A stretch of DNA of 64,000 nt from Alkalispirochaeta sp. (GTDB taxonomy: Bacteria; Spirochaetota; Spirochaetia; DSM-27196; Alkalispirochaetaceae): contig CBDESZ010000006.1 in the NCBI GenBank assembly GCA_965242725.1, forward strand, positions 76,831 through 140,830, written 5' to 3'. This document shows positions 17,088-44,406 of the stretch, piece after piece. A model generated the notes under the pieces. That model saw nothing but the letters and a program-made list of their open reading frames with translations, was not told the origin of the DNA and did no database searches. Both the position numbers and the translations under genes were made by a program. Numbering within the stretch: position 1 is the first letter of the stretch; every line of letters begins with the position of its first letter.

Positions 17088-17779
17088 TAGGTAGCAGCTG
17101 GTATCTGAAATAGTTCAAATTTATCATTATTAAAACTATCTGACTTTTCAACACCAAGAATATCAATAAATGATTCATCATTTTTTTCACTAGGCAAATA
17201 GACTGATATCAGAGGAGAATCAGTCACCTCTCCCCATCTACCATTTGTCAAATTCCAAAGCTCTTGGTATTCATCTGTACATACGTATTCTTTCCAGAAT
17301 TTAGGGCCTTCTTTAAAAAAGTTTTCATGTGTAAAGTTTTTACTCTTCCCTACCAATTCAAAAGACGGTTTTTCGACTATTTTATAATCCATATCATTTC
17401 CTCCTTTGATTTCGATATGAAAAGAAACACGATTATATGCCGATAATTTAACCTCAGAGCTGCGCACTTCTCGTGGATTAATACCATGCATATTCCGGAA
17501 TGCTCTAGTAAACGCATTTGGTGATTCATAACCATATTTCAGAGCGATATCAATGACTTTTTCATTCCCAGCAGCGAGATCAGAGGCTGCTAAATTCAAT
17601 CTTCGTCGTCTGATATATTCAGCAGGCGTAATCCCAATGATTGCATAAAACATTCGCTGAAAATGAAATGATGAACAATTGGCTATCTTTGCTACTTCTG
17701 AAATCAGTAGTTCATATTTAATATTATCTTCAATATAATTGATTGCCATATTCATTCTTTCAGACCATTCCATTATCAT
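17088..17779 (-). pseudogene. AraC/Rob-family regulator with GyrI-like domain, 3'-truncated; AT-rich cassette gene
   Basis: AINYIEDN, FHFQRMF, YIRRRRL, IALKYGYESPNAFTRAF; family-like sequence stops at 'IPAATY'. Confidence 0.8.
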
Positions 17780-17927
17780 GCTTCCTTGTTATGCATAGTA
17801 ATAAATTTTAATTCTATGATCTCACCTTTTTATGCGATGCGATGTGTGTTTATACATTTCCAAACTGGCACGGATGCCAGTTTGCCTATATATAATCCCT
17901 TCTCCCAAAAAAGGGCGGGGTAATTGC

Positions 17928-17990
17928 ATCTAACGTCCTGCGAATAGCCGAAGTTACCAAGGCATTCACCTGTCAACAATGTCCTTAGCT
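17928..17990 (-). other. Truncated attC (R' side only) at the head of the araC cassette
   Basis: Minus strand ..CGCAGGAC-GTTAGAT core site and a small hairpin; no matching R''/L'' arm. Confidence 0.4.
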
Positions 17991-18026
17991 TTCTGTAAAC
18001 CATCTCCATGATCAGTACCTGTGTCC

Positions 18027-18125
18027 ACATAACGATGAGTTGAGTTGTTTGGCGTTAATCGGCGCGGTTGTTGCAGAAGCAAGAACCGTGACGATAGCCA
18101 AATCAACTCGAACGTGGTGTTATGT
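18027..18125 (-). other. attC site (99 bp) closing the higBA cassette
   Basis: Minus strand R'' ACATAAC, L'' GTTCGAG vs L' CTCAAC (extra C), TTGATTTGGC vs GCCAAACAA (extra A), R' GTTATGT. Confidence 0.88.
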
Positions 18126-18198
18126 GACTCAGGTTTTTGAGGTGGACCCCTTCGTCAAGACCACTCAACGAGGGTCTTAAGCTACTCCATTGCCCCGC

Positions 18199-19026
18199 TC
18201 AGGCTGCAGCCTGAGCGCCGCGCCGGTTGTATGCCATATTCGGCGTCTTCCCATCCACGGATGAGTGAGGGCGCCGTCCGTTGTACATCGTGATGTACTC
18301 ATCGATTCGTTGCCGGGCTTCTGCCGGTGATTGGTAGTCGTTGAGGTACACCTCGTCGTACTTGATCGTCCGCCAGAACCGCTCGATGATTACATTGTCG
18401 AGAGCGCGGCCCTTGCCATCCATACTGATCTTCACGCCCGCATCTTTAAGGGGCTGCAGAAACGCCGGAGAGGTGAACTGTACTCCCTGATCGGAGTTGA
18501 AGATCTCCGGCGGCCCATACCGTCTGAGAGCCTGCTCGAGCACTTCAATCGCGGACGATTTGTCGAGAGTCAGGCTTACGTCCCAGCTCAACACCTTCCG
18601 GGAGAACCAGTCAATGATCGCCGTCAGGTACACGAACCCGTCTTCCAGCCGAATATAGGTCGTATCGATCGACCACACCTGGTTGGGACGCTCAATCGAC
18701 AACCCTCTCAAGAGGTACGGGTATACCTCGTGTTCCGGCGGCAGGCGACGGTGATAGGTGTGCGGAAACACCACACGCAGCATCATGAGCCGCATCAGAC
18801 GCTGTACGCGCTTCCGGTTGACCGTCCAACCCTCCAGACGCAGGGCGTCACGGATCATTCGGCTGCCCCACGTGATATGCGCGGTGTGGAGCTCATCGAT
18901 CCGTTTCATAAGCTGATCGGTGTCCCGATCGACCTTCTGCGGTTGGTAGTACAGCGTTGATCGGTTCAGGCCCAACAGCATGCACTGCTCACGGACTGAC
19001 AGTCTTTCGTGATCCGGCTCGATCAT
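18199..19026 (-). CDS. IS3-family transposase OrfB (DDE)
   Basis: WSIDTTY, IDWFSR, FNSDQGVQF, DN..IERFW. Confidence 0.92.
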   Translation of the reverse strand: MIEPDHERLSVREQCMLLGLNRSTLYYQPQKVDRDTDQLMKRIDELHTAHITWGSRMIRDALRLEGWTVNRKRVQRLMRLMMLRVVFPHTYHRRLPPEHEVYPYLLRGLSIERPNQVWSIDTTYIRLEDGFVYLTAIIDWFSRKVLSWDVSLTLDKSSAIEVLEQALRRYGPPEIFNSDQGVQFTSPAFLQPLKDAGVKISMDGKGRALDNVIIERFWRTIKYDEVYLNDYQSPAEARQRIDEYITMYNGRRPHSSVDGKTPNMAYNRRGAQAAA

Positions 19027-19331
19027 TTCCCGAAGTTCGGCAGCTGATCGACTCCCAGTTTTTTTTTCAGGAAATCGATCTGTACTTGCTGGTGACCGAC
19101 CTTCCGGTATAGCTCATCTCGTTCGGCCTCAGTGGCCTGTTGCTCGTCATCATGCTTGCCGGCAAAGATGTCCGGCCCATGATCCATCAGCTCTTTCTTC
19201 CAGCGATGGACCTGCGTCGGATGAACGCCATATTCCTCGGCGATCTCCGTCACGCTGCGGTCAGCCTTGTAGGCCTCCATCGCAACCTTGAACTTGGTCG
19301 CCTTGTTCCATGTTGTTCGTCGTCGTCCCAT
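19023..19331 (-). CDS. IS3-family OrfA (HTH)
   Basis: KFKVAMEA..IAEEYGVHPTQVHRWK; ends LKKK at the slippery site. Confidence 0.88.
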   Translation of the reverse strand: MGRRRTTWNKATKFKVAMEAYKADRSVTEIAEEYGVHPTQVHRWKKELMDHGPDIFAGKHDDEQQATEAERDELYRKVGHQQVQIDFLKKKLGVDQLPNFGK

Positions 19332-19429
19332 GGTGCAAAACCTCCGATTCCCATTCCAACGCAATCTTCATGCGTTGTCCAGTTTTCGGGGTCCACCATA
19401 TTTCGTACAAAAGAATCGAAGCAAGAGCG

Positions 19430-19732
19430 CTAATTCGTCTTGGCGAGTACTCGCGGGATCTTTCTCAAGTCTTCTTTCAGCCGTTCCTTTTCATCGCGAA
19501 GATCATACTCATCCTGGATACCCATCCAGAACTCCGCCGAGTTTCCAAAATACGCCGATAATCGAAGCGCGGTGTCCGCAGTAATACGCCGATTACCTTT
19601 TAGGATCTGCGATATTCGAGTCGCCGGCATCCGGGTGTCCTGGGCAAGTCGGTACGCACTGATTCCCATCGGCTCGAGGAATTCTTCTTTCAATATTTCT
19701 CCGGGAGTAACATTGGGAATTTCGTCCATCAC
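19430..19732 (-). CDS. higA: HigA antitoxin
   Basis: PGEILKEEFLEPMGIS.YRLA..ITADTALRL..FG.SAEFWM..Q..YDL. Confidence 0.92.
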   Translation of the reverse strand: MMDEIPNVTPGEILKEEFLEPMGISAYRLAQDTRMPATRISQILKGNRRITADTALRLSAYFGNSAEFWMGIQDEYDLRDEKERLKEDLRKIPRVLAKTN

Positions 19733-19964
19733 ATCCTCCTAGTGGTAATCCACGATTTCGACGTCGTGAGCCGATCCGTTTTCCCAACGAAAACAGATCC
19801 GCCATTGATCATTAATCCGCACGCTATGCTGACCTGATCGACCCCCCGATAATGATTCCAGTCGATTCCCTGGTGGTATTCGGAGATCATTCAGATCTCG
19901 GGACCGATGAATCATGACGAGTTTGCGATAGGCGGTTTTCTGAATCGGTTCGGGGATTTTTTTT

Positions 19965-21297
19965 GGTTCATCGCAGATTAGCGGGGAATAGTCAGTAGAA
20001 GGAAATAGCAAGATGGCGGCCCACCGGGTACTGTTTGAGTCGACCAAGATCCAAACACCGGAGGACCACCATGCAAGCTATTCACCAAGATATCGACCTT
20101 CTGGGAAACTGGGAAGGCTACCGCGTTCGCGGTATCAGGGTTCCTGTGAACCAGAATCGAAAGATCCGTGTTGAACTCCATCCGAAACACGGGTGGTGGG
20201 GTGGGTGCAGCCGGTGTGGATGTACCGGCTGCGACTACCACGATCGTACAACTCGGGTAGTCCGAGACCTCCCGGTATTCGGCCAAGCGGTTGAACTTCG
20301 TGTCCTCGTACGACGGGTGATTTGTCCGGTATGTGGCCCCAGCCGTGAATCGATCCCCTGGTTGGATTCGTATGCACGCGTCACGAGACGGTTGGCCGAT
20401 ACCGTCTGCCGGATGGCAGAGATCATGACGATCAAGGACGTTGCGAAGACGTTTCTGCTTGCCTGGCATACGGTGAAGAACATCCACAAACGGTACCTAA
20501 CGCACCTCCTTGAGCCGGTTGATCTCAACGGGGTCACCCAGCTTCTGATCGATGAGTTTGCTATCCAGAAAGGGCATCGATACGCGACGGTAGTCGTCGA
20601 TGCAGTGCGAAAACGGGTACTGTGGGTCGGAAGGGGCCGCTCACGAGCCTCTATTCGTCCGTTTTTTGAGCTGCTCGGGGACCAGCGACACAACATCAAA
20701 GCGGTCGCACTCGATATGAGTAGCGCCTACATCAATGAAATCGCCGAACAGTGTCCACACGCGCAGGTGATCTTTGATCACTTTCACGTCATCGCCCGCT
20801 ACGGTCGCGAGGTCATCGATCGCGTCCGCGTTGATGCCGCCAACCGATATCGACATGACCCGATACAGCGGAAGCTGGTCAAAGGGTCTCGTTGGCTCCT
20901 ATTACGAAACCCCAGCAACATCACCCGACCGGAAGACCGGCAACAACTCGACGAGCTGCTTGAAATCAACAAGGAACTATCGCTGGTGTACATCATGAAG
21001 GAGCACCTCAACCATCTCTGGCGGTTCGAAGATCAGATTACCGCTCGTGCGTGGTGGCATCAGTGGTATCGCATGGCGATCAACAGCAACATCGACGCGT
21101 TAATCAAGTTCGCTCGGAATCTATCCGTTCACGTGGAGGGCTTGTTGGCACACACAAGATACCGGCTGAATACCGGTGTCCTCGAAGGTATGAACAACAA
21201 GATCAAGGTGATCAAGCGGGTCGCCTTTGGCTTCCGGGATGACGAATACTTCTTTCTTCGCATCCGTCACGCATTCCCCGGAGTTCGACGATGAACC
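19965..21297 (+). mobile_element. ISL3-family element (1333 bp)
   Basis: IRs GGTTCATCG..GGGGAAT at both ends; 8-bp T8 target duplication; absent from copy 2 (offset difference 1341 = 1333+8). Confidence 0.93.
20071..21294 (+). CDS. ISL3 transposase
   Basis: CxxC zinc finger, IDEFA, ALDMS, DHFHV, EGMNNKIK.IKR.AFGFR; GGAGG before ATG20071. Confidence 0.92.
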   Translation: MQAIHQDIDLLGNWEGYRVRGIRVPVNQNRKIRVELHPKHGWWGGCSRCGCTGCDYHDRTTRVVRDLPVFGQAVELRVLVRRVICPVCGPSRESIPWLDSYARVTRRLADTVCRMAEIMTIKDVAKTFLLAWHTVKNIHKRYLTHLLEPVDLNGVTQLLIDEFAIQKGHRYATVVVDAVRKRVLWVGRGRSRASIRPFFELLGDQRHNIKAVALDMSSAYINEIAEQCPHAQVIFDHFHVIARYGREVIDRVRVDAANRYRHDPIQRKLVKGSRWLLLRNPSNITRPEDRQQLDELLEINKELSLVYIMKEHLNHLWRFEDQITARAWWHQWYRMAINSNIDALIKFARNLSVHVEGLLAHTRYRLNTGVLEGMNNKIKVIKRVAFGFRDDEYFFLRIRHAFPGVRR

Positions 21298-21370
21298 TTT
21301 TTTTTTGAAAACTCTTGCCGCCAGATTCTCGACGTCTCTTTGTCCTTAAATGACTCGATCACCTAGGCTA

Positions 21371-21414
21371 ATAATAACGCAATACATCATTGACGTAAAG
21401 CGTCATTATGACGC
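21371..21414 (-). promoter_or_regulatory. higBA promoter and palindromic operator
   Basis: Minus strand TTTACG-N17-TATTAT ending 8 nt before the GTG start (near-leaderless); IR GCGTCAT-T-ATGACGC at 21400-21414. Confidence 0.6.
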
Positions 21415-21477
21415 GAGAGCGTACCTTCGGTTTCTGCGTCAATCGCGTATTGCAATTTGGCTTCGCGTTCCGGAGTC

Positions 21478-21554
21478 ACATAACGACCGCATCACCTGCG
21501 CCCTCGCAGGAGCGAAGCGACGAGAAGGCGTCTGGTGAATGCGCGATGTTATGT
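21478..21554 (-). other. attC site (77 bp) immediately 5' of the ISCR-like transposase gene
   Basis: Minus strand R'' ACATAAC, GCATTCACC vs GGTGATGC (one extra base), CCAGACGCC vs GGCGCAGG (extra A), R' GTTATGT. Confidence 0.85.
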
Positions 21555-21616
21555 TGCGCACGGTGACCACGCCCCCTATCTGAAGCAGGAAGCTCGCTAC
21601 GCCCGTATGTGTTTAT

Positions 21617-22954
21617 GTGAGCACGGCAATCTCTGTCGCGACCGCGGTAAGGAATCAATACGTTCCCCGCGGCCGCAACGAGCTCCATACTATATTCGAG
21701 CGGCACTTCGGCGACTTCTGCGCCCAGTACGATGAGAAGTACGCCGCCACTTACGGCCGGTATCGCCTTGAGCGCATCCAGCAGATCGGGGAGCGGTTTT
21801 GCACCTGTGGCGACTATCTCCAGGGCGTCGCGCGGATACGCTGCACGAATCCCGAATGCGGACACGATTACTTCCGACCGTTCTCCTGCAAGGGGTTTTA
21901 TCTTTGTCCGTCCTGCAGTCGCAAACGAACCATCCTGTTCGCTGAACACCTGACAGACGAGGTCCTGCTCAAGCTGCCGCATCGGCAGTTCGTTTTCACG
22001 ATGCCCAAAGCACTCCGGCCGTTCTTTCGCCACGATCGACGCTTGTTCGCCGAGGTGTCTCGCCTAATCTACGACATCCTCCGTGATTTTTACCAAGAGG
22101 CCGCGGGCAGACCGCTGCTCACCGGCATGGTCATCGCGCACCAGACGTTTGGAGACATGCTCCGCTGGAACCCTCATTTCCACGCCATCGTTTTGGAGGG
22201 CGGGTTTGATGATGAAGGTACGTTCTTCTACATCCCGTTCTCTGGGCTCCAGTCGATGGTCGAGGTATTCCGGCGTCGGGTGATCAAGCTGGTGGTGCAA
22301 CGGGAGCTCCTGAACGATGACTTCGCTCGAAACCTTCTATCCTGGAGACACTCCGGTTTCAGTATCGACAACAGCGTACGCATACTCGACGAGTCCTCCC
22401 AGGAAAGCCTGGCGGAGTACATAGCACGGCCGCCGATCTCGCTGAAGAAGATCCGCTACGAGCCGTTCAAAGGGAAGGTCCTATTTCACACCAAGTACTC
22501 GGAGTATTTCAAGCAGAACTTCCATCTGTTCGATGCCTTAGACTTTTTGGCCGAGTTAACGCAGCACATCCCGCCGAAACGTCTACAACTGATTCGGCGT
22601 TACGGGCTCTATGCCTCCCGCACAAAGGGACGGTGGGCACAGATGCCATGGGTTGTGGAACGAGCACCGGACGGATGGAAGACCGACCATCAATGCGGTG
22701 ATGTCGCAGATGATCCTGGCTACGAGCCATTGTCGGATGGGGATGAAGAGGTCGATATCAATGCGAGCAAACGCGCCTGGGCCCGACTACTCGCGAAGGT
22801 CTATGAGGTCGATCCGATGGTCTGCCCAAAGTGCGGTGCGGACATGAAGGTGATCGCCGTCATCGAGGATCCCGACGAACTGAAGCGTATCCTCCGACAT
22901 CTGATCAAGATCGGGCGGTCCCCACCGGGATTCGATCCCGATCGCCTTAACTGA
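21617..22954 (+). CDS. IS91-family (ISCR-like) HUH rolling-circle transposase
   Basis: Zn domain (CGD..C..C..FSCK...CPSC), HRQFVFT, NPHFH (HUH), HSGFS, single Tyr SLAEYIARPP, RYG, WARLL..CPKCG..ILRHL. Confidence 0.92.
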   Translation: MSTAISVATAVRNQYVPRGRNELHTIFERHFGDFCAQYDEKYAATYGRYRLERIQQIGERFCTCGDYLQGVARIRCTNPECGHDYFRPFSCKGFYLCPSCSRKRTILFAEHLTDEVLLKLPHRQFVFTMPKALRPFFRHDRRLFAEVSRLIYDILRDFYQEAAGRPLLTGMVIAHQTFGDMLRWNPHFHAIVLEGGFDDEGTFFYIPFSGLQSMVEVFRRRVIKLVVQRELLNDDFARNLLSWRHSGFSIDNSVRILDESSQESLAEYIARPPISLKKIRYEPFKGKVLFHTKYSEYFKQNFHLFDALDFLAELTQHIPPKRLQLIRRYGLYASRTKGRWAQMPWVVERAPDGWKTDHQCGDVADDPGYEPLSDGDEEVDINASKRAWARLLAKVYEVDPMVCPKCGADMKVIAVIEDPDELKRILRHLIKIGRSPPGFDPDRLN

Positions 22955-23174
22955 CTGCTCTCTCGGCCTCGCGCCGTGGCATCCGTGTGTCCGTCTTACG
23001 CCCCAATCGTTTCCGTAACAGCCCTGATCTGTCCGTTTGGACGTTTGCGTACTCGAGTGGGCGGCAAGTGCGCCGCCGGCGCACGGCGAACCGCGATTCT
23101 CGTCGTGATTTCGTCGAGTCTTGCGCCTACCGCCCGTTTTCCGGTTGCGCTCGCGGATAACTCTTCCTACTACT
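22955..23174 (+). other. oriIS-like end
   Basis: About 220 bp non-coding tail ending AACTCTTCCTACTACT (TTCCTA resembles IS91/ISCR oriIS); identity with copy 2 stops here; IR GTGCGCCG/CGGCGCAC at 23068-23084. Confidence 0.75.
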
Positions 23175-23238
23175 GGTGCTTCTCGAGTCGGAGGGCATGC
23201 GCCTCGAGGATGTCGTCGCCGAGCTCGCCTCGCGCTGA
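23171..23238 (+). pseudogene. hisE: 3' remnant of phosphoribosyl-ATP pyrophosphatase (hisE/hisIE)
   Basis: Translates LVLLESEGMRLEDVVAELASR*, matching the HisE C-terminal pattern; only 21 codons. Confidence 0.6.
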
Positions 23239-23331
23239 CCGACTGACCGGCCGTCATCGCGGCGGGCCTGTTGCGGACGACCTTCCGTCGGAACGGGCGA
23301 CCCGGCGTACGGCGCGCGCCGTCCCCGGTCG

Positions 23332-24693
23332 TTACGGCGTGGCCGTCGGACCGGCAGGTTCGGCGTACTCCATCGGCCCCTCGTCGGGGTTGTACGAACT
23401 TTCGGCGTCCTGAACGGCGCCGGGCGGCAATGGAACGTCCCCCGCCAGGAGGGGGTCTCCGGTCCGACGCATCCACGACTCCAGTCGTTCCTCCAGCGCA
23501 GCCCGTACCTCCGCGTACCCCGGGTCATCGGCGACGTTCACCCGCTCGAGGGGATCGATGTTGAGGTCGTAGAGCTGCACCGCGTCCAGGGGAAAATTCC
23601 TCACCCCCGCGTCGAAGAGGTGGTGCTTCGACGCGCTGCCGTCGATGTTGACGGGAACGAGGCGGGGCGGCGTGAGAAATCGCTTGATCAGCTTGTGGTC
23701 CCGGGTACGGATGGCGCGCTGTGGCTCGTACCGGGCGTGGTACGTCACTTCCGCGAACAGCTCGTCCCGGATCTGATCGCGCTCACCCGTGAGGAGGGGA
23801 AGCAGGGAGCGACCCTCGAGGTTCGCCGGCGCGGGGATCCCCGTCAGTTCGCAGATCGTCGGAAAGATGTCGAGGTGCGAGACGAGGCCGTTGACGACCG
23901 ATCCGCGGGCGGGGTTGCCGGGATAGTCGAGGATGAGGGCGACGCCGATGCCCGTATCGTAGAGGGTGCACTTGTTGTAGGGGTACGCCACCCCGTGGTC
24001 CGTCGTGAAGATGATGATCGTCTGCTCCCGGAGCCCCGCGGCGTCCAGGGCGTCCAGCACGATGCGCACGCAGCGGTCGACGACGCGGGCGGAGGTGACA
24101 AAGCCGGCGTAATCCTCCCGCGCTTCGGGGGTGTCGGTGACCTCCCGGGGAGGCAGGAGGCGGTCAGGCTCGACCCCTTCCTCGACGGGGGGAAACTCCC
24201 GGTGCGTGTTGAACATACCGAAGGAGAGGAAGAAGGGGGAGTCGCTTTCACCCGCCTTCGTGAGGTACGCCGCGGCGCTCCGGGCGTTGGAGAGGTCGTA
24301 CTCGACGGTGTCGAAGTCGTGGGCGTTGGCCATCGAAATCCCGAAGTCGTCGAGGACCTCGTCGTATCCGATCGCGTCGACCGGCTCCGCCTCGTGCTGG
24401 ATACCCGACAGGGCCGTTCGGTAGCCCGCGGCCGTGCAGTGGCGCACGAGATGCTCCTCGTAGTCGTAGAGCCGGAACCCCCGGTGAGCGAGGCCGAGCA
24501 TTCCCGCGCGGTGGGGGCTCGTGCCGGTGAGGAGTCCCGCCCGACTGGGGGAGCACGTCGGGGCGGTGCTGTACGCCTGGCGGAAGAGGGTTCCCCGCCG
24601 GGCCAGCTCGGTGATTGCCGGGGTGCCGACGGCGTACCCGTAGGGGTCGAAGTACCGCCCGCTGTCGTGCGTGTGAAGGTAAAGAATGTTCAT
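23332..24693 (-). CDS. Cys-type sulfatase
   Basis: MNILYLHTHD start, CSPSRAGLLTG formylglycine motif, TTDHG, LYDL..DP.E. Confidence 0.9.
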   Translation of the reverse strand: MNILYLHTHDSGRYFDPYGYAVGTPAITELARRGTLFRQAYSTAPTCSPSRAGLLTGTSPHRAGMLGLAHRGFRLYDYEEHLVRHCTAAGYRTALSGIQHEAEPVDAIGYDEVLDDFGISMANAHDFDTVEYDLSNARSAAAYLTKAGESDSPFFLSFGMFNTHREFPPVEEGVEPDRLLPPREVTDTPEAREDYAGFVTSARVVDRCVRIVLDALDAAGLREQTIIIFTTDHGVAYPYNKCTLYDTGIGVALILDYPGNPARGSVVNGLVSHLDIFPTICELTGIPAPANLEGRSLLPLLTGERDQIRDELFAEVTYHARYEPQRAIRTRDHKLIKRFLTPPRLVPVNIDGSASKHHLFDAGVRNFPLDAVQLYDLNIDPLERVNVADDPGYAEVRAALEERLESWMRRTGDPLLAGDVPLPPGAVQDAESSYNPDEGPMEYAEPAGPTATP

Positions 24694-24737
24694 CGTGTGT
24701 TGACCTTTCATGTGTGGTGTCACCGCGGTGCTCCACA

Positions 24738-25571: not shown

Positions 25572-25586
25572 GCTTCCTCCTCTGCC

Positions 25587-26462: not shown

Positions 26463-26562
26463 GGACGGTCCTTTGTTTCGTCGAAGATTTCGTCGAAATG
26501 GCGCGGAAGAGGGCCTGTGCTCTCTTCCGCGCCGGGATGGGTCAGTTCTCGGAGCGGAGAGT

Positions 26563-34253: not shown

Positions 34254-34286
34254 AGAGAGTCGCCGCGGCCGGCCATCGCGCGCCGG

Positions 34287-35190: not shown

Positions 35191-35271
35191 CGCGCGCCAC
35201 TTCGGGCGTGCAAACGTTCCCCCTGCTGTGGTACAATGCCGCCACAATCAGCGATGGGAGGAACAATTCGC

Positions 35272-37242
35272 ATGGATAACAAGGCCGTTGAAGCCGTAGC
35301 ACTCTCGGTACGTACCCTGACAATCGACGCCGTACAGGCGGCAAACTCCGGACACCCCGGCATGCCGATGGGCATGGCCGAGCTCGGCGCACTCCTCTAC
35401 GGGGAGGTTCTCAAGCACGACCCCGCCGACCCGAAATGGCCCGACCGCGACCGTTTCGTGCTCTCCGCCGGCCACGGTTCGATGTTTCTCTACAGCCTGC
35501 TCCACCTCTCCGGCTACAATCTCCCGCTGGACGAGCTCAAGCGCTTTCGTCAGGTCGGGAGCATCACCCCGGGGCACCCCGAGTACGGGATGACCGACGG
35601 TATCGAGACGACCACCGGACCCCTCGGACAGGGACTCGCCAACGCCGTCGGTATGGCAATCGCCGAACGGATGCTCGCCGCGCGGTTCAACACCGCCGAC
35701 CACACGATCGTTGACCACTATACCTACGCCATCTCCGGCGACGGCTGTCTCATGGAGGGCATCACCTCCGAGGCGAGCTCCCTCGCGGGCCACCTCGGCC
35801 TGGGCAAGCTGATCGTCTTCTACGACAACAACAGCATCTCCATCGAAGGTTCCACCGAGCTCGCCTTTACCGAAGACGTGGCGGCGCGCTATCGCGCCTA
35901 CGGCTGGCAGGTACTCGAGGGCGACGCCTACGACCCCGACGGTATCCGCAAGATGGTGGCGGAAGCGAAGAAGGACGCGTCGCGACCGGCGATCATCATG
36001 CTCAAATCGGTGATCGGCCAGGGATCGCCCAACAAGAAGGGAACTCACGACGTTCACGGAGCGGCCCTCGGGGACGACGAGGTCGCCCTCACCAAGAAGC
36101 AGCTCGGCGTCGATCCCGCAGAGATGTTTTACATCGCTCCCGCCGCGACGGAGTTCTTTGCGGCGTACCGCGCGGAGCTTGCCGGGAAGCACGCGGCGTG
36201 GAAGAAGACTTTCGACGCCTGGGGCGCCGCCAATCCGGGGCTCCTCGCCCAGTGGAAAGAGGCGGTCGAGGGCGGTTACAAGGCGGTTCTCAAGGACATC
36301 GGGATGCCCACCTACAAAGTGGGTGACAAGGTCCCGACGCGCAAGGCGAGCGGTTCGGCGCTGCAGGCGGCGGCCCGGATGCTTCCCAACCTCGTCGGCG
36401 GCTCCGCGGACCTCGCTCCCTCCAACAACACGGCGATGCCCGAATACGGCGACTTCACGAAGGCCGACCCGAGCGGTCGCACCCTCCATTTCGGCGTGCG
36501 CGAGCTCGGCATGGCGGCGATCGGCAACGGCATGGCCCTCCACGGCGGTCTCCGGCCCTTCGTGGCGACCTTTCTCGTTTTTACCGACTACCTGCGCCCG
36601 GCGCTGCGCCTCTCGGCGCTGATGCAGATTCCGCTGATCTACGTGATGACCCATGACTCGATCTTCGTCGGTGAAGACGGACCGACCCACCAGCCGATTG
36701 AACACGTCGCCGTCCTGCGGGCGATCCCCGGAGCGCGGGTGCTGCGTCCCGCCGACGCGGAGGAAACCAACGAGGCGTGGCTCATGGCCCTCGAGCACGA
36801 CGGCCCCACGGTACTCGCCCTCACACGGCAGGGACTCCCGGTCCTCGAGAAGGCCGACGCCGACTGGAAAGAATCGATGCGCCGCGGCGCCTACGTCGTC
36901 AGTGACGTTGCCTCCCCGGAGGTTGTCGTCGTTGCGACGGGGAGTGAAGTCTCCCTCGCCCAGGAAGCGGTCGCCAGGAGCGGCCGGAAGGCGCGGATCG
37001 TCTCGATGCCGAGCCGGGAGCTCTTTGAGGCGCAGGACGCGGCGTGGCGGGAGAAGATCCTGCCGGCGGGAGTTCCCGCCGTCGTCGCCGAGGCGGGTAT
37101 CCGCCAGGGCTGGGAAGGTATCGCTCCCCGGGAGCGGATCCTCTCGATCGATCGCTTCGGCGAGAGTGGCCCCGGCGATGCCGTCGCACAGCACCTCGGC
37201 TTTACCGCCGACGCCCTCGCGGCGCTGATCAAGAACGCCTGA
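35272..37242 (+). CDS. tkt: Transketolase
   Basis: [41 protein letters not shown]. Confidence 0.95.
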
Positions 37243-37255
37243 CCGGAGGAACCCT

Positions 37256-38800
37256 ATGGCACGCTACGCCCTTGGCTACGATGTGGGGAGCTCGTCGATC
37301 AAGGCGAGCCTCGTCGATCTCGATTCGGGAAAACGGGTCGCGTCGGCGGGGGCTCCCGAGACGGAAATGCCGATCAGTGCACCCCGGCCTGACTGGGCGG
37401 AGCAGGACCCGGCGATGTGGTGGCGCTACGTCGTCGAGGCGACGCGGAAGCTGGGGCAGGCGGCGGACCTGAGTGGCGTCGCCTCGATCGGCATCTCCTA
37501 CCAGATGCACGGGCTCGTTGCCATCGATCGCGACGGCGAGCCCCTGCGCCCCTCGATCATCTGGTGCGACAGCCGCGCCGTCTCGTACGGTGAAGAGGCG
37601 TTCAACACCCTCGGCGGTGCTGCGAAGGTGCTGCCGCGGCTTCTCAACTCCCCGGGCAACTTTACCGCCGCCAAACTGGCGTGGGTCAAGGCCAACGAGC
37701 CGGACGTCTACGGCCGCATCTGGAAGATCATGCTCCCCGGAGACTACATCGGGTACTGCCTCACCGGCGACGTTGTGACGACCGCGGGGGGGCTCTCGGA
37801 GGGCATCTTCTGGGATTTTCAGCAGGACGAACCTGCCGGTTTCTTGATGGACCATTTCGGGTTTGACCGTGAGCTCATACCCCCGGTGATGGAGGGGTTT
37901 GGCGACCACGGCCGGGTGACCTCCGCCGTCGCGGCGGAGCTCGGCCTGCCCGCGGGGACCCCCGTCGCGTACCGCGCCGGGGACCAACCCAACAACGCCC
38001 TCAGTCTCAACGTCCTCAACCCCGGTGAGGTCGCAGCGACGGCGGGCACCTCCGGCGTCATCTACGGCGTCGTGGACCGCCCGGCGTGGGACGAGAAGAG
38101 CCGGGTCAACACCTTCCTCCACGTCAACCACCGTGCCGACCAGTCCCGGTACGGGGTGCTCCAGGTGCTCAACGGCACGGGCATCCTCAACCGCTGGGTC
38201 CGGGAGGTGAGCCTCGATCCGGTAGCCGGCGGGGCCGCTGGGGCCGGAAGCGCGCCCGGCGGGGCGCCCGCCTCGTACGAGGCGCTCAACGCGCTCGCGG
38301 CGGAGGCGCCGATCGGGAGCGCCGGGCTGGTGATGCTCCCCTTCGGGAACGGCGCGGAGCGCATCCTCGAAAACGTCAACTACGGCGCGAGTATGCACGG
38401 CCTCAACTTCAACATCCACGGTCGGAGTCACCTGCTCCGCGCCGCCCAGGAGGGCATCGTCTTTGCCCTCGGGTTCGGCCTGGAGATCATGCGTGGAATC
38501 GGCCTCACCGTTGATACCGTCCGCGCCGGCCACGCCAACATGTTTCTCAGCCCCCTCTTCCGGCGTGCGTTCGCGACCGTCACCGGGGCGACAGTCGAGC
38601 TCTTCAACACCGACGGGAGCGAGGGTGCCGCGCGGGGTGGTGCCTACGGTGCAGGGCTCTTCTCAAGTCTCGAGGAAGCGTTCAGCGGCCTCGACCTCCG
38701 GGAGCGGATCGAGCCCGACCGGAGCGTCGCCGGGGAGTACGCCGAGGCGTTCCAGCAGTGGAAGGACCGCCTGGCTCGGGTGACCGCCGCCGGCGTGTGA
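37256..38800 (+). CDS. xylB: FGGY-family sugar kinase, probably xylulokinase
   Basis: DVGSSSIK, EQDP, QMHG, IIWCD.R, AGDQ, GTSG. Confidence 0.8.
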   Translation: MARYALGYDVGSSSIKASLVDLDSGKRVASAGAPETEMPISAPRPDWAEQDPAMWWRYVVEATRKLGQAADLSGVASIGISYQMHGLVAIDRDGEPLRPSIIWCDSRAVSYGEEAFNTLGGAAKVLPRLLNSPGNFTAAKLAWVKANEPDVYGRIWKIMLPGDYIGYCLTGDVVTTAGGLSEGIFWDFQQDEPAGFLMDHFGFDRELIPPVMEGFGDHGRVTSAVAAELGLPAGTPVAYRAGDQPNNALSLNVLNPGEVAATAGTSGVIYGVVDRPAWDEKSRVNTFLHVNHRADQSRYGVLQVLNGTGILNRWVREVSLDPVAGGAAGAGSAPGGAPASYEALNALAAEAPIGSAGLVMLPFGNGAERILENVNYGASMHGLNFNIHGRSHLLRAAQEGIVFALGFGLEIMRGIGLTVDTVRAGHANMFLSPLFRRAFATVTGATVELFNTDGSEGAARGGAYGAGLFSSLEEAFSGLDLRERIEPDRSVAGEYAEAFQQWKDRLARVTAAGV

Positions 38801-38817
38801 CACGATAGCAACCCGCG

Positions 38818-39480
38818 ATGCTGATCGGCCCGGACTCTCCCCTTACCCTCCCGGCGCTCGCGCGAATCGCGGCGGTGCCGGAGGCGATCCATTTCAGCGC
38901 GGCGTCGCGGGAGCGCGTCGCCTCCGCGGCGGCGTTTCTCGAACGGCTCGTCGCCGATCGCCGCGTCGTCTACGGCATTACCACCGGCTTCGGGCCGCTG
39001 GCGGGGACGTGGATCGACCCGTCCCGGTCTGAGGAGCTGCAAACCTACCTGCTGGCTCATTTGCGGTCCGGGGTCGGGCCACCCCTGCCGCGCGAGGCGG
39101 TGCGGGCGATGATGGTGGCGCGCCTGGCGAGTCTCTCCCGGGGTCACTCGGGCATTCGGATGGAAACCCTGGAGCTTCTCGCCGCCATGGTCGAACGGGA
39201 CGTTACGCCGGTTGTTCCGTCGATGGGGACCGTCGGTGCCAGCGGGGATCTCACGCCTCTCGCGCATATGGCAGCGACGCTGCAGGGGGAGGGAGAGGTT
39301 CTGGTCGAGGGTGTGGCACTTCCCGCCGGGGAGGGGCTTCGCCGTGTCGGGCTGGAGCCGGTCGTCTTTGGCCCGAAGGAGGCGATCGCCCTGGTCAACG
39401 GCACCTCGACCATGACCGCCATCGCCGCGCTCAACGGGGAGGCGGCGGAACGACAGCTCAACCTCGCCGTCGCCCTTACT
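38818..39480 (+). pseudogene. hutH: Histidine/aromatic amino acid ammonia-lyase, 3'-truncated by unit copy 2
   Basis: YGITTGFG, GTVGASGDL (MIO), KEAIALVNGT; only about 220 codons before the TACT junction. Confidence 0.82.
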
Positions 39481-39563
39481 TCTGAAATCAGTAGTTCATA
39501 TTTAATATTATCTTCAATATAATTGATTGCCATATTCATTCTTTCAGACCATTCCATTATCAT
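39477..39563 (-). pseudogene. 5' stub of the araC cassette gene
   Basis: MIMEWSERMNMAINYIEDNIKYELLISEV, then runs into antisense hutH. Confidence 0.85.
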
Positions 39564-39810
39564 GCTTCCTTGTTATGCATAGTAATAAATTTTAATTCTA
39601 TGATCTCACCTTTTTATGCGATGCGATGTGTGTTTATACATTTCCAAACTGGCACGGATGCCAGTTTGCCTATATATAATCCCTTCTCCCAAAAAAGGGC
39701 GGGGTAATTGCATCTAACGTCCTGCGAATAGCCGAAGTTACCAAGGCATTCACCTGTCAACAATGTCCTTAGCTTTCTGTAAACCATCTCCATGATCAGT
39801 ACCTGTGTCC

Positions 39811-39909
39811 ACATAACGATGAGTTGAGTTGTTTGGCGTTAATCGGCGCGGTTGTTGCAGAAGCAAGAACCGTGACGATAGCCAAATCAACTCGAACGTG
39901 GTGTTATGT
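39811..39909 (-). other. attC (copy of 18027-18125)
   Basis: Same sequence as copy 1. Confidence 0.88.
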
Positions 39910-39982
39910 GACTCAGGTTTTTGAGGTGGACCCCTTCGTCAAGACCACTCAACGAGGGTCTTAAGCTACTCCATTGCCCCGC

Positions 39983-40810
39983 TCAGGCTGCAGCCTGAGC
40001 GCCGCGCCGGTTGTATGCCATATTCGGCGTCTTCCCATCCACGGATGAGTGAGGGCGCCGTCCGTTGTACATCGTGATGTACTCATCGATTCGTTGCCGG
40101 GCTTCTGCCGGTGATTGGTAGTCGTTGAGGTACACCTCGTCGTACTTGATCGTCCGCCAGAACCGCTCGATGATTACATTGTCGAGAGCGCGGCCCTTGC
40201 CATCCATACTGATCTTCACGCCCGCATCTTTAAGGGGCTGCAGAAACGCCGGAGAGGTGAACTGTACTCCCTGATCGGAGTTGAAGATCTCCGGCGGCCC
40301 ATACCGTCTGAGAGCCTGCTCGAGCACTTCAATCGCGGACGATTTGTCGAGAGTCAGGCTTACGTCCCAGCTCAACACCTTCCGGGAGAACCAGTCAATG
40401 ATCGCCGTCAGGTACACGAACCCGTCTTCCAGCCGAATATAGGTCGTATCGATCGACCACACCTGGTTGGGACGCTCAATCGACAACCCTCTCAAGAGGT
40501 ACGGGTATACCTCGTGTTCCGGCGGCAGGCGACGGTGATAGGTGTGCGGAAACACCACACGCAGCATCATGAGCCGCATCAGACGCTGTACGCGCTTCCG
40601 GTTGACCGTCCAACCCTCCAGACGCAGGGCGTCACGGATCATTCGGCTGCCCCACGTGATATGCGCGGTGTGGAGCTCATCGATCCGTTTCATAAGCTGA
40701 TCGGTGTCCCGATCGACCTTCTGCGGTTGGTAGTACAGCGTTGATCGGTTCAGGCCCAACAGCATGCACTGCTCACGGACTGACAGTCTTTCGTGATCCG
40801 GCTCGATCAT
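39983..40810 (-). CDS. IS3 OrfB, copy 2
   Basis: Identical translation to 18199..19026. Confidence 0.92.
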   Translation of the reverse strand: MIEPDHERLSVREQCMLLGLNRSTLYYQPQKVDRDTDQLMKRIDELHTAHITWGSRMIRDALRLEGWTVNRKRVQRLMRLMMLRVVFPHTYHRRLPPEHEVYPYLLRGLSIERPNQVWSIDTTYIRLEDGFVYLTAIIDWFSRKVLSWDVSLTLDKSSAIEVLEQALRRYGPPEIFNSDQGVQFTSPAFLQPLKDAGVKISMDGKGRALDNVIIERFWRTIKYDEVYLNDYQSPAEARQRIDEYITMYNGRRPHSSVDGKTPNMAYNRRGAQAAA

Positions 40811-41115
40811 TTCCCGAAGTTCGGCAGCTGATCGACTCCCAGTTTTTTTTTCAGGAAATCGATCTGTACTTGCTGGTGACCGACCTTCCGGTATAGCTCA
40901 TCTCGTTCGGCCTCAGTGGCCTGTTGCTCGTCATCATGCTTGCCGGCAAAGATGTCCGGCCCATGATCCATCAGCTCTTTCTTCCAGCGATGGACCTGCG
41001 TCGGATGAACGCCATATTCCTCGGCGATCTCCGTCACGCTGCGGTCAGCCTTGTAGGCCTCCATCGCAACCTTGAACTTGGTCGCCTTGTTCCATGTTGT
41101 TCGTCGTCGTCCCAT
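40807..41115 (-). CDS. IS3 OrfA, copy 2
   Basis: Identical translation to copy 1. Confidence 0.88.
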   Translation of the reverse strand: MGRRRTTWNKATKFKVAMEAYKADRSVTEIAEEYGVHPTQVHRWKKELMDHGPDIFAGKHDDEQQATEAERDELYRKVGHQQVQIDFLKKKLGVDQLPNFGK

Positions 41116-41213
41116 GGTGCAAAACCTCCGATTCCCATTCCAACGCAATCTTCATGCGTTGTCCAGTTTTCGGGGTCCACCATATTTCGTACAAAAGAAT
41201 CGAAGCAAGAGCG

Positions 41214-41516
41214 CTAATTCGTCTTGGCGAGTACTCGCGGGATCTTTCTCAAGTCTTCTTTCAGCCGTTCCTTTTCATCGCGAAGATCATACTCATCCTG
41301 GATACCCATCCAGAACTCCGCCGAGTTTCCAAAATACGCCGATAATCGAAGCGCGGTGTCCGCAGTAATACGCCGATTACCTTTTAGGATCTGCGATATT
41401 CGAGTCGCCGGCATCCGGGTGTCCTGGGCAAGTCGGTACGCACTGATTCCCATCGGCTCGAGGAATTCTTCTTTCAATATTTCTCCGGGAGTAACATTGG
41501 GAATTTCGTCCATCAC
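41214..41516 (-). CDS. higA: HigA antitoxin, copy 2
   Basis: Identical translation to 19430..19732. Confidence 0.92.
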   Translation of the reverse strand: MMDEIPNVTPGEILKEEFLEPMGISAYRLAQDTRMPATRISQILKGNRRITADTALRLSAYFGNSAEFWMGIQDEYDLRDEKERLKEDLRKIPRVLAKTN

Positions 41517-41522
41517 ATCCTC

Positions 41523-41805
41523 CTAGTGGTAATCCACGATTTCGACGTCGTGAGCCGATCCGTTTTCCCAACGAAAACAGATCCGCCATTGATCATTAAT
41601 CCGCACGCTATGCTGACCTGATCGACCCCCCGATAATGATTCCAGTCGATTCCCTGGTGGTATTCGGAGATCATTCAGATCTCGGGACCGATGAATCATG
41701 ACGAGTTTGCGATAGGCGGTTTTCTGAATCGGTTCGGGGATTTTTTTTTGAAAACTCTTGCCGCCAGATTCTCGACGTCTCTTTGTCCTTAAATGACTCG
41801 ATCAC
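41523..41805 (-). pseudogene. higB: HigB toxin, frameshifted in an A9 tract
   Basis: GTG41805 MIESFKDKETSRIWRQEFSKK; 9 A where 8 would give KKIPEPIQ...IVDYH*; explains its absence from the ORF track. Confidence 0.85.
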
Positions 41806-41920
41806 CTAGGCTAATAATAACGCAATACATCATTGACGTAAAGCGTCATTATGACGCGAGAGCGTACCTTCGGTTTCTGCGTCAATCGCGTATTGCAATT
41901 TGGCTTCGCGTTCCGGAGTC

Positions 41921-41997
41921 ACATAACGACCGCATCACCTGCGCCCTCGCAGGAGCGAAGCGACGAGAAGGCGTCTGGTGAATGCGCGATGTTATGT
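41921..41997 (-). other. attC (copy of 21478-21554)
   Basis: Same sequence as copy 1. Confidence 0.85.
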
Positions 41998-42059
41998 TGC
42001 GCACGGTGACCACGCCCCCTATCTGAAGCAGGAAGCTCGCTACGCCCGTATGTGTTTAT

Positions 42060-43397
42060 GTGAGCACGGCAATCTCTGTCGCGACCGCGGTAAGGAATCA
42101 ATACGTTCCCCGCGGCCGCAACGAGCTCCATACTATATTCGAGCGGCACTTCGGCGACTTCTGCGCCCAGTACGATGAGAAGTACGCCGCCACTTACGGC
42201 CGGTATCGCCTTGAGCGCATCCAGCAGATCGGGGAGCGGTTTTGCACCTGTGGCGACTATCTCCAGGGCGTCGCGCGGATACGCTGCACGAATCCCGAAT
42301 GCGGACACGATTACTTCCGACCGTTCTCCTGCAAGGGGTTTTATCTTTGTCCGTCCTGCAGTCGCAAACGAACCATCCTGTTCGCTGAACACCTGACAGA
42401 CGAGGTCCTGCTCAAGCTGCCGCATCGGCAGTTCGTTTTCACGATGCCCAAAGCACTCCGGCCGTTCTTTCGCCACGATCGACGCTTGTTCGCCGAGGTG
42501 TCTCGCCTAATCTACGACATCCTCCGTGATTTTTACCAAGAGGCCGCGGGCAGACCGCTGCTCACCGGCATGGTCATCGCGCACCAGACGTTTGGAGACA
42601 TGCTCCGCTGGAACCCTCATTTCCACGCCATCGTTTTGGAGGGCGGGTTTGATGATGAAGGTACGTTCTTCTACATCCCGTTCTCTGGGCTCCAGTCGAT
42701 GGTCGAGGTATTCCGGCGTCGGGTGATCAAGCTGGTGGTGCAACGGGAGCTCCTGAACGATGACTTCGCTCGAAACCTTCTATCCTGGAGACACTCCGGT
42801 TTCAGTATCGACAACAGCGTACGCATACTCGACGAGTCCTCCCAGGAAAGCCTGGCGGAGTACATAGCACGGCCGCCGATCTCGCTGAAGAAGATCCGCT
42901 ACGAGCCGTTCAAAGGGAAGGTCCTATTTCACACCAAGTACTCGGAGTATTTCAAGCAGAACTTCCATCTGTTCGATGCCTTAGACTTTTTGGCCGAGTT
43001 AACGCAGCACATCCCGCCGAAACGTCTACAACTGATTCGGCGTTACGGGCTCTATGCCTCCCGCACAAAGGGACGGTGGGCACAGATGCCATGGGTTGTG
43101 GAACGAGCACCGGACGGATGGAAGACCGACCATCAATGCGGTGATGTCGCAGATGATCCTGGCTACGAGCCATTGTCGGATGGGGATGAAGAGGTCGATA
43201 TCAATGCGAGCAAACGCGCCTGGGCCCGACTACTCGCGAAGGTCTATGAGGTCGATCCGATGGTCTGCCCAAAGTGCGGTGCGGACATGAAGGTGATCGC
43301 CGTCATCGAGGATCCCGACGAACTGAAGCGTATCCTCCGACATCTGATCAAGATCGGGCGGTCCCCACCGGGATTCGATCCCGATCGCCTTAACTGA
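42060..43397 (+). CDS. IS91-family (ISCR-like) HUH transposase, copy 2
   Basis: Identical translation to 21617..22954. Confidence 0.92.
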   Translation: MSTAISVATAVRNQYVPRGRNELHTIFERHFGDFCAQYDEKYAATYGRYRLERIQQIGERFCTCGDYLQGVARIRCTNPECGHDYFRPFSCKGFYLCPSCSRKRTILFAEHLTDEVLLKLPHRQFVFTMPKALRPFFRHDRRLFAEVSRLIYDILRDFYQEAAGRPLLTGMVIAHQTFGDMLRWNPHFHAIVLEGGFDDEGTFFYIPFSGLQSMVEVFRRRVIKLVVQRELLNDDFARNLLSWRHSGFSIDNSVRILDESSQESLAEYIARPPISLKKIRYEPFKGKVLFHTKYSEYFKQNFHLFDALDFLAELTQHIPPKRLQLIRRYGLYASRTKGRWAQMPWVVERAPDGWKTDHQCGDVADDPGYEPLSDGDEEVDINASKRAWARLLAKVYEVDPMVCPKCGADMKVIAVIEDPDELKRILRHLIKIGRSPPGFDPDRLN

Positions 43398-43613
43398 CTG
43401 CTCTCTCGGCCTCGCGCCGTGGCATCCGTGTGTCCGTCTTACGCCCCAATCGTTTCCGTAACAGCCCTGATCTGTCCGTTTGGACGTTTGCGTACTCGAG
43501 TGGGCGGCAAGTGCGCCGCCGGCGCACGGCGAACCGCGATTCTCGTCGTGATTTCGTCGAGTCTTGCGCCTACCGCCCGTTTTCCGGTTGCGCTCGCGGA
43601 TAACTCTTCCTAC

Positions 43614-44406
43614 TACTTGCGGTTAGAAAGACCCTTAGCGCCGGTGAACTATCCCGAAACAGGAGGATCACCGTGCCGAAGACCAGCATAAAAACCGTGT
43701 AGTAGACCAGATAAATGACGGTAACTGCACCAAGAGAAACAAGGCTGAACGTTCCGAGCCAGTAGTTGACGCTGACCGTTGTCAAAACCCCATAGGTAAC
43801 TCCGTAAAATAGAATCGTCTTGAGATTACCGCGCCAGAGTACAAAAAGTAACGGAACAATCCCGATCCAACCCAGGACTCCAATGCCGGAGGTGCTGATC
43901 GCTGATGGAAGTGAAAGAGTCGAGAGCCCCACGGAAAGCAGTGTGAGCAACAGTTCATAACGGTGCTGCCTCGCCGCGAAGAATAGATACAACAAAAAAA
44001 CAGAAAGCAGCGACGGCCCGAATCGGAGTGCGACGATGGTCCGCTCCGTGCTTGTATCGATCGCCAGATTCAGCTCTCCGCCGCTTGCAATGAATCTCTG
44101 GACATAATCCATGTTTGCATTTGCAGCGAATATGTACCGGAACAAGAAAAACAGGAGCCCGACGGAGAGCAGCGACTCAGCGTAAAGGCGAACGGCTCGC
44201 CCGCGACGGTCTGCCGGTTTTCCATTACCGAAAATGAGCCATGTTCCGAGGAAACCGACCGCCAGGGCGAGCATGGCGGGAGGGAAGAGCCGAAGGCTCA
44301 CTTCCGTTACGGCGTAAGGTCCCAGGAAAAGGATTCCGATTTCTACGACTCCGACAGCGAGAAGGGCCCCGCCCGCTTTTCGGTACGATGATGATTCAGG
44401 TTTCAT
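43614..44406 (-). pseudogene. lnt: Apolipoprotein N-acyltransferase-like membrane protein, 3'-truncated at the oriIS junction
   Basis: LS.PS....GIGVLGWIGIVPLL, NYWLGTF N-terminal TM pattern; CN-hydrolase domain absent; frame runs into oriIS. Confidence 0.65.

Follow-up and report, generated by a model that had tools for sequence, protein, structure and literature searches.

How does a block of ordinary metabolic genes from one bacterial species come to stand between two identical copies of a mobile unit in the metal-resistance region of another? The question is raised by a 64,000-nt stretch (hereafter, the window) of contig C6 in the genome of an Alkalispirochaeta sp. (G000, the host; other C-numbers likewise denote contigs), in which 16,302 bp of DNA, referred to below as the cargo, is bracketed by two direct copies of a 4.1-kb unit that carries a transposase gene (tnp) of the insertion sequence (IS) family IS91. 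With a probability of roughly 0.5, we propose that an IS91-family element, resident in a metal-resistance region shared between species, mobilised the DNA on the side of its left end (terIS) by one-ended transposition from its right end (oriIS), a reading taken from the sequence of the unit and its joints. Read-through by IS91, either by this route through a donor lyase gene or by the F-prime-like route discussed below, is the most likely explanation of the locus.

Self-BLAST and a repeat search of the window aligned 17693-19964 with 39477-41748 (2,272 bp) and 21298-23174 with 41741-43617 (1,877 bp), in both cases at 100% identity. Once a 1,333-bp insert and one 8-bp duplication of a T run are removed, copies 1 and 2 are equal letter for letter over 4,141 bp; a chance match is excluded for an exact repeat of this length, and the lack of any difference indicates that the duplication was recent. 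Three joints result, namely oriIS-TACT/hisE', lyase'/TACT-Rob' and oriIS-TACT/lnt' (slashes mark the breaks). The initial annotation of this DNA, made from the sequence without database searches, was right about the two direct copies of a 4.1-kb unit and, as inspection of the joints confirmed, about TACT at every joint; for the flanked stretch, which it placed at 23171-39476, the end stands and the start moves to 23175, since 23171 takes the shared TACT as cargo. The composite-transposon test at the locus found no duplication in the outer flanks beyond the element's own TACT. A composite transposon was ruled out: the left outer flank is native and runs on into the unit without a break, and the repeated unit exceeds an IS.

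The unit had been equated with the element itself, which did not hold: the element proper measures 1,691 bp, and the unit is this 1.69-kb IS91-family element plus 2.45 kb of ordinary neighbouring DNA. Searches against Pfam and NCBIfam gave the order as the 5' end of a Rob/SoxS-like regulator gene with its upstream DNA, an IS3 element, higA with a frameshifted higB, and the IS91 tnp. The left edge of the repeat, between 17692 and 17693, cuts into an intact, native Rob-like gene, the first 29 codons (87 bp) of which lie within the repeat; the helix-turn-helix (HTH) domain of the regulator straddles this edge (Pfam), and the NCBIfam SoxS/RamA/RobA models start at profile positions 6-9, corresponding to residues 8-13 of the Rob-like protein. 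A same-genus relative, G041 (the same genome as G003; an independent assembly labelled as an uncultured Spirochaeta metagenome-assembled genome, or MAG), is continuous over the edge, at 99-100% identity across window positions 1-18035. Because the Rob-like gene is intact and G041 is contiguous here, copy 1 lies in its native left context, and copy 2 has a truncated duplicate of the same context.

The left edge of the repeat coincides exactly with a TACT (17693-17696 = 39477-39480) identical to the tetranucleotide beyond oriIS, a sequence that occurs in the window at a frequency of about 0.002 per position. The repeat thus reaches 2.45 kb past terIS, into an intact native gene, and terminates at TACT. 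IS91 and its relatives are described as having dissimilar ends and a tetranucleotide beside oriIS, with terIS skipped by IS91 in 1-10% of events (PMC13181058), and read-through products of IS801 are reported to terminate in a tetranucleotide identical to that beside oriIS (PMC3189936). The anatomy of the unit, as read from its edges, matches this signature of IS91/IS801 one-ended transposition.

The transposase contains the Pfam domains Y2_Tnp (E 6e-22) and Zn_Tnp_IS91 (E 5e-13) and scores above the threshold of the NCBIfam model transpos_IS91 (148.4 bits vs a cut-off of 125). ISCR_clade_Ia, the sole NCBIfam ISCR model with a match, gave 129.8 bits, spread over two partial stretches, vs a cut-off of 925. 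Of the earlier label, an IS91/ISCR-type transposase, the rolling-circle superfamily and the IS91 assignment stand and the ISCR part falls away, the score lying far under the cut-off for ISCR clade Ia. On the features tested, the element belongs to the IS91 family. Its left end begins ATAACGACCGCATCACCTGCG and its right end finishes ..GCGGATAACTCTTCCTAC; oriIS lies 3' of tnp and terIS upstream of it, the ends are dissimilar, and terminal inverted repeats are absent.

The ends were compared with relatives of the transposase, 157 of which were confirmed by tblastn in public genomes and 80 kept. The left end was fixed from four upstream contexts: at 41923, ATAACGACCGCATCACC, identity starts relative to L021 (in an Alkalispirochaeta MAG), L045 (a degenerate copy in G041) and C6:4786-4863 (a solo fragment), and the DNA upstream is unrelated each time. 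This end contains the palindrome CCTGCG-CCCT-CGCAGG. The right end, ..GATAAC..TTCCTAY, is kept in 10 of 11 aligned relatives, and the four bases after CCTAY are TATT (4), GATT (2), CATT (2), AATT (1) or TATC (1), that is, NAT(T/C) in 10 of the 11; the tetranucleotide beside oriIS here is TACT. Predicted folding of the ends is modestly better than that of shuffled sequences (z from -1.1 to -2.3).

Several further observations concern these ends. The solo fragment is a 78-bp IS91 left end, 95% identical, situated 38 bp from a second copy of the ISL3 element that interrupts copy 1 (C6:4901-6233, 99.9% identical); no oriIS end matching the fragment occurs elsewhere in the genome, and a genome search for other oriIS ends that might flank other blocks rich in guanine and cytosine (GC), allowing up to 3 mismatches, returned chance-level matches only. 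Contig C53 of G041 and contigs of sequencing runs X1 and X3 track the left junction of the element as far as ..CACATAAC and then pass into unrelated DNA. The pentanucleotide ATAAC before GACCGC is also found in three IS91 copies of other contexts, and ATAAC (41923-41927) may be a part of the element or a cleavage mark. C53 was also considered as an empty site of the IS91 element and rejected, as none of the element's right flanks is related to the sequence after ..CACATAAC.

From one edge to the other, the cargo comprises the 3' stub of hisE, a sulfatase, a sugar ABC transporter made up of two permeases and a binding protein, a ROK regulator, leuB, a DUF711 protein, a YjjG-like nucleotidase, transketolase, a xylulokinase-like kinase and the 5' stub of an ammonia-lyase gene. 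Both edge genes are cut, as first proposed: of hisE the last 20 codons remain, and of the lyase gene the first 219. The hisE side of the joint reads TACT/GGTGCTTCTCGAG, and its counterpart in the host was located with PF01503. The lyase stub, which matches the NCBIfam hutH and tyrosine-lyase/mutase models, ends ..GTCGCCCT at the break. A protein search recovered five intact lyase orthologues from metagenomes (P0002-P0006; 98, 90, 89, 86 and 79% identity; 521-593 aa), and 5/5 read ..LAVAL-GLLYAE.. vs ..LAVAL/TSE.. here. Leu-Gly is not encodable by CT-TACT, so that the TACT here does not derive from the lyase gene and travelled with the unit. The expectation of the initial annotation that intact hutH would carry TACT at the break is contradicted by the Leu-Gly present in all five orthologues; the TACT comes from the side of the Rob-like gene, which agrees with the IS801 precedent of read-through products.

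The GC content of the cargo is 0.60-0.70 in 1-kb windows, mostly at least 0.65, and that of the genome in 4-kb windows has a median of 0.576 and a 95th percentile of 0.62. The host possesses its own leuB and tkt (C14) and further homologues (C15), with 76-78% DNA identity to the cargo, and no second copy of the cargo is present in the genome. The cargo is syntenic with a chromosomal cluster of same-genus relatives at 72-81% identity, and neither 40 relatives nor a further 98 genomes of the order yielded closer DNA, the best identity in them being likewise 72-81%. The 3' half of the lyase gene is absent from the genome; the lyase stub had matches of at most 46% in 21 other genomes of the family and of at most 54% among 28 loci on metagenome contigs, and no homologue of P0002 was found at E<=1e-80 in 400 genomes of the class. 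In G013, a sulfatase homologue is present and hisE is not beside it. The higher GC content, the host homologues at about 77% and the lack of a closer relative indicate that the cargo is a chromosomal block of an unsampled, higher-GC member of the lineage. By its composition and homology, the cargo is foreign to the host and not a copy of the host's own chromosome. The existence of a donor, which the initial annotation had assumed, is supported by these data, and its description of the cargo as the organism's own housekeeping chromosome has to be replaced: the genes are another species' version, about 77% identical to those of the host. A short tandem repeat occurs within the cargo at 29267-29407, where 81-bp stretches at an offset of 60 bp match at 89%.

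Seen from copy 2, the cargo is on the 5' side of tnp, and at its other extreme it meets the oriIS-TACT of copy 1 exactly; the placement proposed earlier, with the cargo 5' of tnp and oriIS 3' of it, is borne out by this joint anatomy. The first two joints look like a rolling-circle product that runs from the oriIS of copy 2 leftward to hisE and was circularised or set beside the resident copy. In the course of events that we favour, transposition would have started at oriIS, passed terIS, higBA and IS3 and stopped at the TACT of the Rob gene, yielding the 4.1-kb unit. A copy of the unit would then have landed in the ammonia-lyase gene of a high-GC relative, where a second read-through from the lyase copy would have extended over 16.3 kb to a stop in hisE. 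The resulting 20.4 kb of cargo and unit would have joined the resident copy by homologous recombination or by insertion at the oriIS-side TACT. Last, the ISL3 element entered copy 1, its presence in this copy alone showing that it arrived after the duplication. The joint of a 20.4-kb circle would be identical in sequence to the array joint at 23170-23178, and outward PCR therefore cannot separate a circle from the tandem array.

The same four joints would arise from recombination only, if the unit had been inserted in both hisE and the lyase gene of the donor in the same orientation, and a circle released by recombination between these insertions had then recombined into the resident unit. The 4.1 kb of perfect identity is an excellent substrate for such exchange, and most IS801 fragments of Pseudomonas syringae have been ascribed to rearrangements rather than to read-through (PMC3189936). 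However, this scheme requires two transpositions that each skipped an intact-looking terIS and each halted at the same TACT, with two recombination steps on top, and beyond these two copies the genome lacks any other of the unit or of its oriIS end. We regard it as quite unlikely.

The surroundings of the array bear on a further alternative. The rest of C6 encodes several heavy-metal P-type ATPases, MerR/ArsR regulators, a MerA-like reductase, an rnf cluster and further IS elements, and the Pfam and NCBIfam assignments of genes on this contig bear out the metal-resistance region in a spirochaete that had been suggested at the outset. G041 is 99% identical to window positions 1-18035 and about 100% identical to 43618-49891, and the sampled stretches upstream of the window (within C6:60470-76830) are 99% identical to its contig C1. 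The core cluster of G041 and that of the host share 74-79% identity, and this difference from the roughly 99% of the island indicates recent movement of the region between species. The shared metal-resistance region points to recent interspecies transfer, or to a contig binned into both genomes.

If the island had resided on a circular replicon, a non-terminated IS91 round could have fused this replicon into the lyase gene of the donor, leaving a unit at both joints, and a second round from the other copy could have copied the replicon out and overshot by 16.3 kb to hisE, much as an F-prime carries chromosomal genes; read-through would still be needed. IS91 read-through reportedly yields plasmid fusions (Mendiola 1994). 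This one scheme would explain the native left flank of copy 1, the island right flank of copy 2 and the cargo between them; the joint at 23170-23178 would simply be the circle joint, and the surroundings, at least 18 kb with 99% identity between species of about 75% core identity, argue that the region is mobile. Nevertheless, no replication or conjugation genes were found in the 69 open reading frames (ORFs) of C6:1-76830 (NCBIfam, E<=1e-10) or in the 62 ORFs of the window (Pfam), the contig is not circular as assembled, and the same unsampled donor is required. As a way to the same joints this route would work equally well; we judge it unlikely, and the donor-lyase course described above remains our preferred reading.

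All of these schemes presuppose that the array is one molecule. The genome bin has 34 contigs and a contamination of 2.6%. The assembly resolves two rRNA operons of about 6 kb and 2.6-kb IS copies at 99.9-100% identity within large contigs, and such resolution of long, near-exact repeats indicates that it is probably a long-read assembly, with reads able to span 5.5 kb. Four runs of one sample contain 86-98% of the sampled words. In run X15 (sample S15, source-like), contigs cross both cargo junctions by 30-nt word overlap, and the depth is 5.3-6.9 over the cargo and 12-16 over the unit, about 1:2. This 2:1 depth fits two units per cargo and fits equally well a locus with one unit between the left and right flanks (L-unit-R) accompanied by a free cargo-unit circle, which has the same four joints. 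Several apparent joints within the cargo in X15, considered as rearrangements, were rejected, their sides shorter than 30 nt and their high depth marking conserved genes of other organisms. Contigs of runs X1, X3 and X6, from other studies, contain unit pieces and the IS3-free site, and the cargo is absent from them; these runs look like a G041-type organism and are uninformative on the array.

Either such a free 20.4-kb circle or plasmid beside L-unit-R, or two organisms sharing the unit, could in principle have been threaded together through the 4.1-kb repeat. The four joints and the 2:1 depth are the same under both topologies, the bin has the contig number and contamination given above, the sample is a community, other organisms raising the depth of conserved cargo genes to 125-290, and several GC shifts occur along the contig. 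Against this, longer exact repeats are resolved elsewhere in the assembly, the depths of 12-16 for the unit and 5.3-6.9 for the cargo would demand two contexts of near-equal abundance, none of the loose ends listed continues the cargo into the 5' part of hisE or the 3' part of the lyase gene, and the latter half-gene is missing from the genome. A free circle, too, would hold both novel joints and would still need an IS91 explanation. False joining of separate molecules is, in our estimate, an improbable account.

The right flank of copy 2 departs from the pattern of the other joints. In G041, lnt is intact (642 aa, LNT_N and CN_hydrolase) and spans the start of this flank; after the same IS91 end and TACT come, in turn, a ptsI-like gene that is truncated, 3,652 bp (L022:966-4617) and intact lnt. 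At the position where the right flank of the window starts, G041 reads GCGC/TGCGG, not TACT, with a 2-bp (TG) microhomology. The absence of 3,652 bp relative to G041 directly at the IS91-TACT indicates an adjacent deletion, not an insertion. The same oriIS-TACT is accordingly abutted by three different sequences: hisE', lnt' and ptsI'.

A number of points weigh against one-ended transposition as we reconstruct it. The joint of copy 2 with the right flank is, to judge by the comparison with G041, not a canonical insertion, and the deletion is unexplained by published chemistry. On the + strand, 15 further TACTs within the unit and 23 within the cargo were all passed, and these roughly 38 passages imply that TACT alone is insufficient to stop the enzyme; terIS, which would have been skipped, is seemingly intact. 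Transposases of the IS91 type are characterised by an HUH motif and a pair of catalytic tyrosines (Y249 and Y253 in the case of IS91); here HFH and EYIARPPIS were spotted by eye in the translation, and EYIARPPIS holds one tyrosine only. No empty site for this IS91 element was found, and TACT as its target is derived from the comparison of ends alone. The native bases after the lyase break (Leu-Gly, NGGN) are unlike NAT(T/C), so that the lyase gene would have been a non-consensus target if the unit was inserted there. The 16.3-kb spacing from hisE to the lyase gene in the unsampled donor is presumed, as is the native state of hisE at its break. The long-range order rests on the assembly, on which public short contigs bear indirectly, through the cargo junctions and the 2:1 depth only. 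The features to which these arguments refer are collected in Table 1.

Table 1. Features of the array and of its immediate flanks, in window coordinates.
Feature	Position	Strand	Details
Rob/SoxS-like AraC-family regulator gene	16979-17779	-	266 aa; Pfam HTH_AraC aa 16-57, HTH_18 aa 30-107
Copy 1 of repeated unit	17693-23174	+	4,141 bp + ISL3 insertion; TACT at both extremes
IS3-family element	18138-19400	-	1,263 bp, TTT duplication; Pfam rve/HTH_Tnp_1; NCBIfam IS3 274 bits
higA + decayed higB	19430-20047	-	higA 19430-19732, intact; NCBIfam HigA 104 bits; Pfam HigB-like toxin
ISL3-family element, copy 1 only	19965-21297	+	1,333 bp; Pfam DDE_Tnp_ISL3 E 3e-65; inverted ends; 8-bp T-run duplication
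IS91-family element, copy 1	21480-23170	+	1,691 bp; tnp 21617-22954
TACT between copy-1 oriIS end and cargo	23171-23174	+	also at 17693-17696, 39477-39480, 43614-43617
Cargo	23175-39476		16,302 bp
hisE 3' stub	23176-23238	+	20 codons + stop; 11/20 identical to C-terminus of host HisE (C34), aligned by eye
HAL/TAL-family ammonia-lyase 5' stub	38818-39476	+	219 codons; PF00221 positions 1-214 of 466; Ala-Ser-Gly motif
Copy 2 of unit	39477-43617	+	87 bp of Rob-like gene + its upstream DNA, IS3, higBA, IS91 element
IS3 twin in copy 2	39922-41184		
IS91-family element, copy 2	41923-43613	+	tnp 42060-43397
Truncated lnt-like gene abutting copy-2 oriIS-TACT	43618-44586	-	Pfam LNT_N only

Within the neighbouring DNA of the unit, the IS3-free joint (39918 to 41185) is found in contigs of runs X1, X3 and X6 and in contig C53 of G041. 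The higB of copy 2 is frameshifted at a T9 run (41741-41749), with split frames at 41523-41699 and 41671-41805, and in copy 1 the ISL3 element is inserted at the corresponding T run (19957-19964 and 21298-21306). Contigs of X3 and X6 have two T fewer at the T9 run and may preserve the frame. When the unit was searched against a plasmid collection, its IS3 part gave the sole match, at about 65% identity.

Beyond the right flank, 50230-64000 has a GC content of 0.62-0.71 to the contig end and encodes, among others, feoB, a DUF5312 protein and a 2-hydroxyacid dehydrogenase. Host C18:41632-52187 is its counterpart at 65-74% identity, and G041 has the block at 98.6% identity, on another contig and next to other DNA on its left. 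The block, beside which there is no IS91 end, may be a second import of chromosomal DNA. At the jump in GC content from 0.55 to 0.68 stands a 349-bp repeat (49885-50233), related copies of which are present in C5 and in contig C53 of G041; its two sides are on different contigs of G041 (C42 and C2), the genomes being arranged differently. Elsewhere in the window, 895-1361 and 14714-15180 form an inverted 467-nt pair, 70-73% alike, that represents diverged class I methyltransferase genes, 13 kb apart and facing. On contig C4, the last 80 kb or so (C4:350001-430194, to the contig end) constitute an atypical block with a GC content of 0.57-0.74, mostly at least 0.63 in the profiled stretches; a BLASTN search with C4:348001-414000 found no counterpart elsewhere in the genome, and the final 16 kb of the block lie outside that search.

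Capture by IS91 or ISCR has mostly been inferred from old, eroded structures near resistance or virulence genes. Here the copies are still identical, the end point of the read-through lies within a gene whose intact context survives next door, and the cargo is the ordinary metabolism of another species. The locus may thus serve as a clean natural case for the reach of read-through (2.45 kb, then 16.3 kb) and for its stop signal (the tetranucleotide plus something else), and it bears on whether, away from the clinic, IS91-type elements move core genes from species to species. Annotation, too, calls for caution, as leuB, tkt and related genes occur in this bin as foreign second copies. We tentatively raise the idea, which we think doubtful, that among spirochaetes of alkaline or saline habitats an IS91 element on an interspecies-mobile region acts as a general carrier of chromosomal DNA, which time and again lifts 10-20-kb blocks of core metabolic genes from a high-GC host and hands them on to other species as divergent second copies. 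If so, the island would be a mosaic of captures; candidate blocks would be the 16.3-kb cargo, 50230-64000 and, in G041, another GC-rich block next to the same flank.

Among known systems, IS91, IS801 and IS1294 share with this element an HUH rolling-circle transposase with a zinc-binding N-terminus, oriIS downstream and terIS upstream, and the co-mobilisation of DNA upstream of tnp that ends at the oriIS-side tetranucleotide, a feature read here from anatomy only (PMC13181058, PMC3189936). The differences concern the tetranucleotide (TACT or NAT(T/C) here vs CTTG, GTTC and GAAC in IS91/IS801/IS1294), the length of read-through (2.45 kb and then 16.3 kb vs 0.3-1.4 kb for IS801) and an orf121-like gene upstream of tnp, none of which was seen here, unlike in the IS91 group. 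Unlike the described cases, the host is a spirochaete, and the element is known from its sequence alone. The translocatable units and cointegrates of IS26 resemble the array in that cargo plus one IS is added at a resident copy with no new target duplication; however, IS26 has a DDE enzyme, and here the repeat contains, besides the IS, other DNA that ends at a tetranucleotide. F-prime and Hfr systems similarly have a mobile region that exports neighbouring chromosomal genes, which become divergent second copies in the next host, but the joints here are at an IS91 end and TACT, not at the IS-IS sites of a conjugative plasmid, and no transfer genes were found.

A model for the complex class 1 integrons of ISCR1 was reportedly put forward by Toleman in 2006. 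The layout of the array is alike, with direct repeats of terIS-side DNA around a unique region and varied sequences at a constant oriIS end, and in the integrons the duplicated terIS-side DNA is described as surrounding a unique region that abuts oriIS (PMC3575428). Unlike in ISCR1, terIS is recognisable here, and the cargo is core metabolism, with no resistance genes. Pfam searches of the 62 window ORFs matched no integrase or other integron part; of the complex class 1 integron/ISCR1 architecture initially proposed, the layout is retained, and the identification is not, there being no integron part and a transposase below the ISCR clade Ia cut-off. Helitrons also capture flanking genes when termination of the rolling-circle transposon fails (PMC5714925); they overshoot at a 3' terminator and encode a helicase, unlike the element described here, and the likeness is by analogy only. 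Taken against these systems, the array represents a known gene-capture mechanism in a new host, not a new mechanism.

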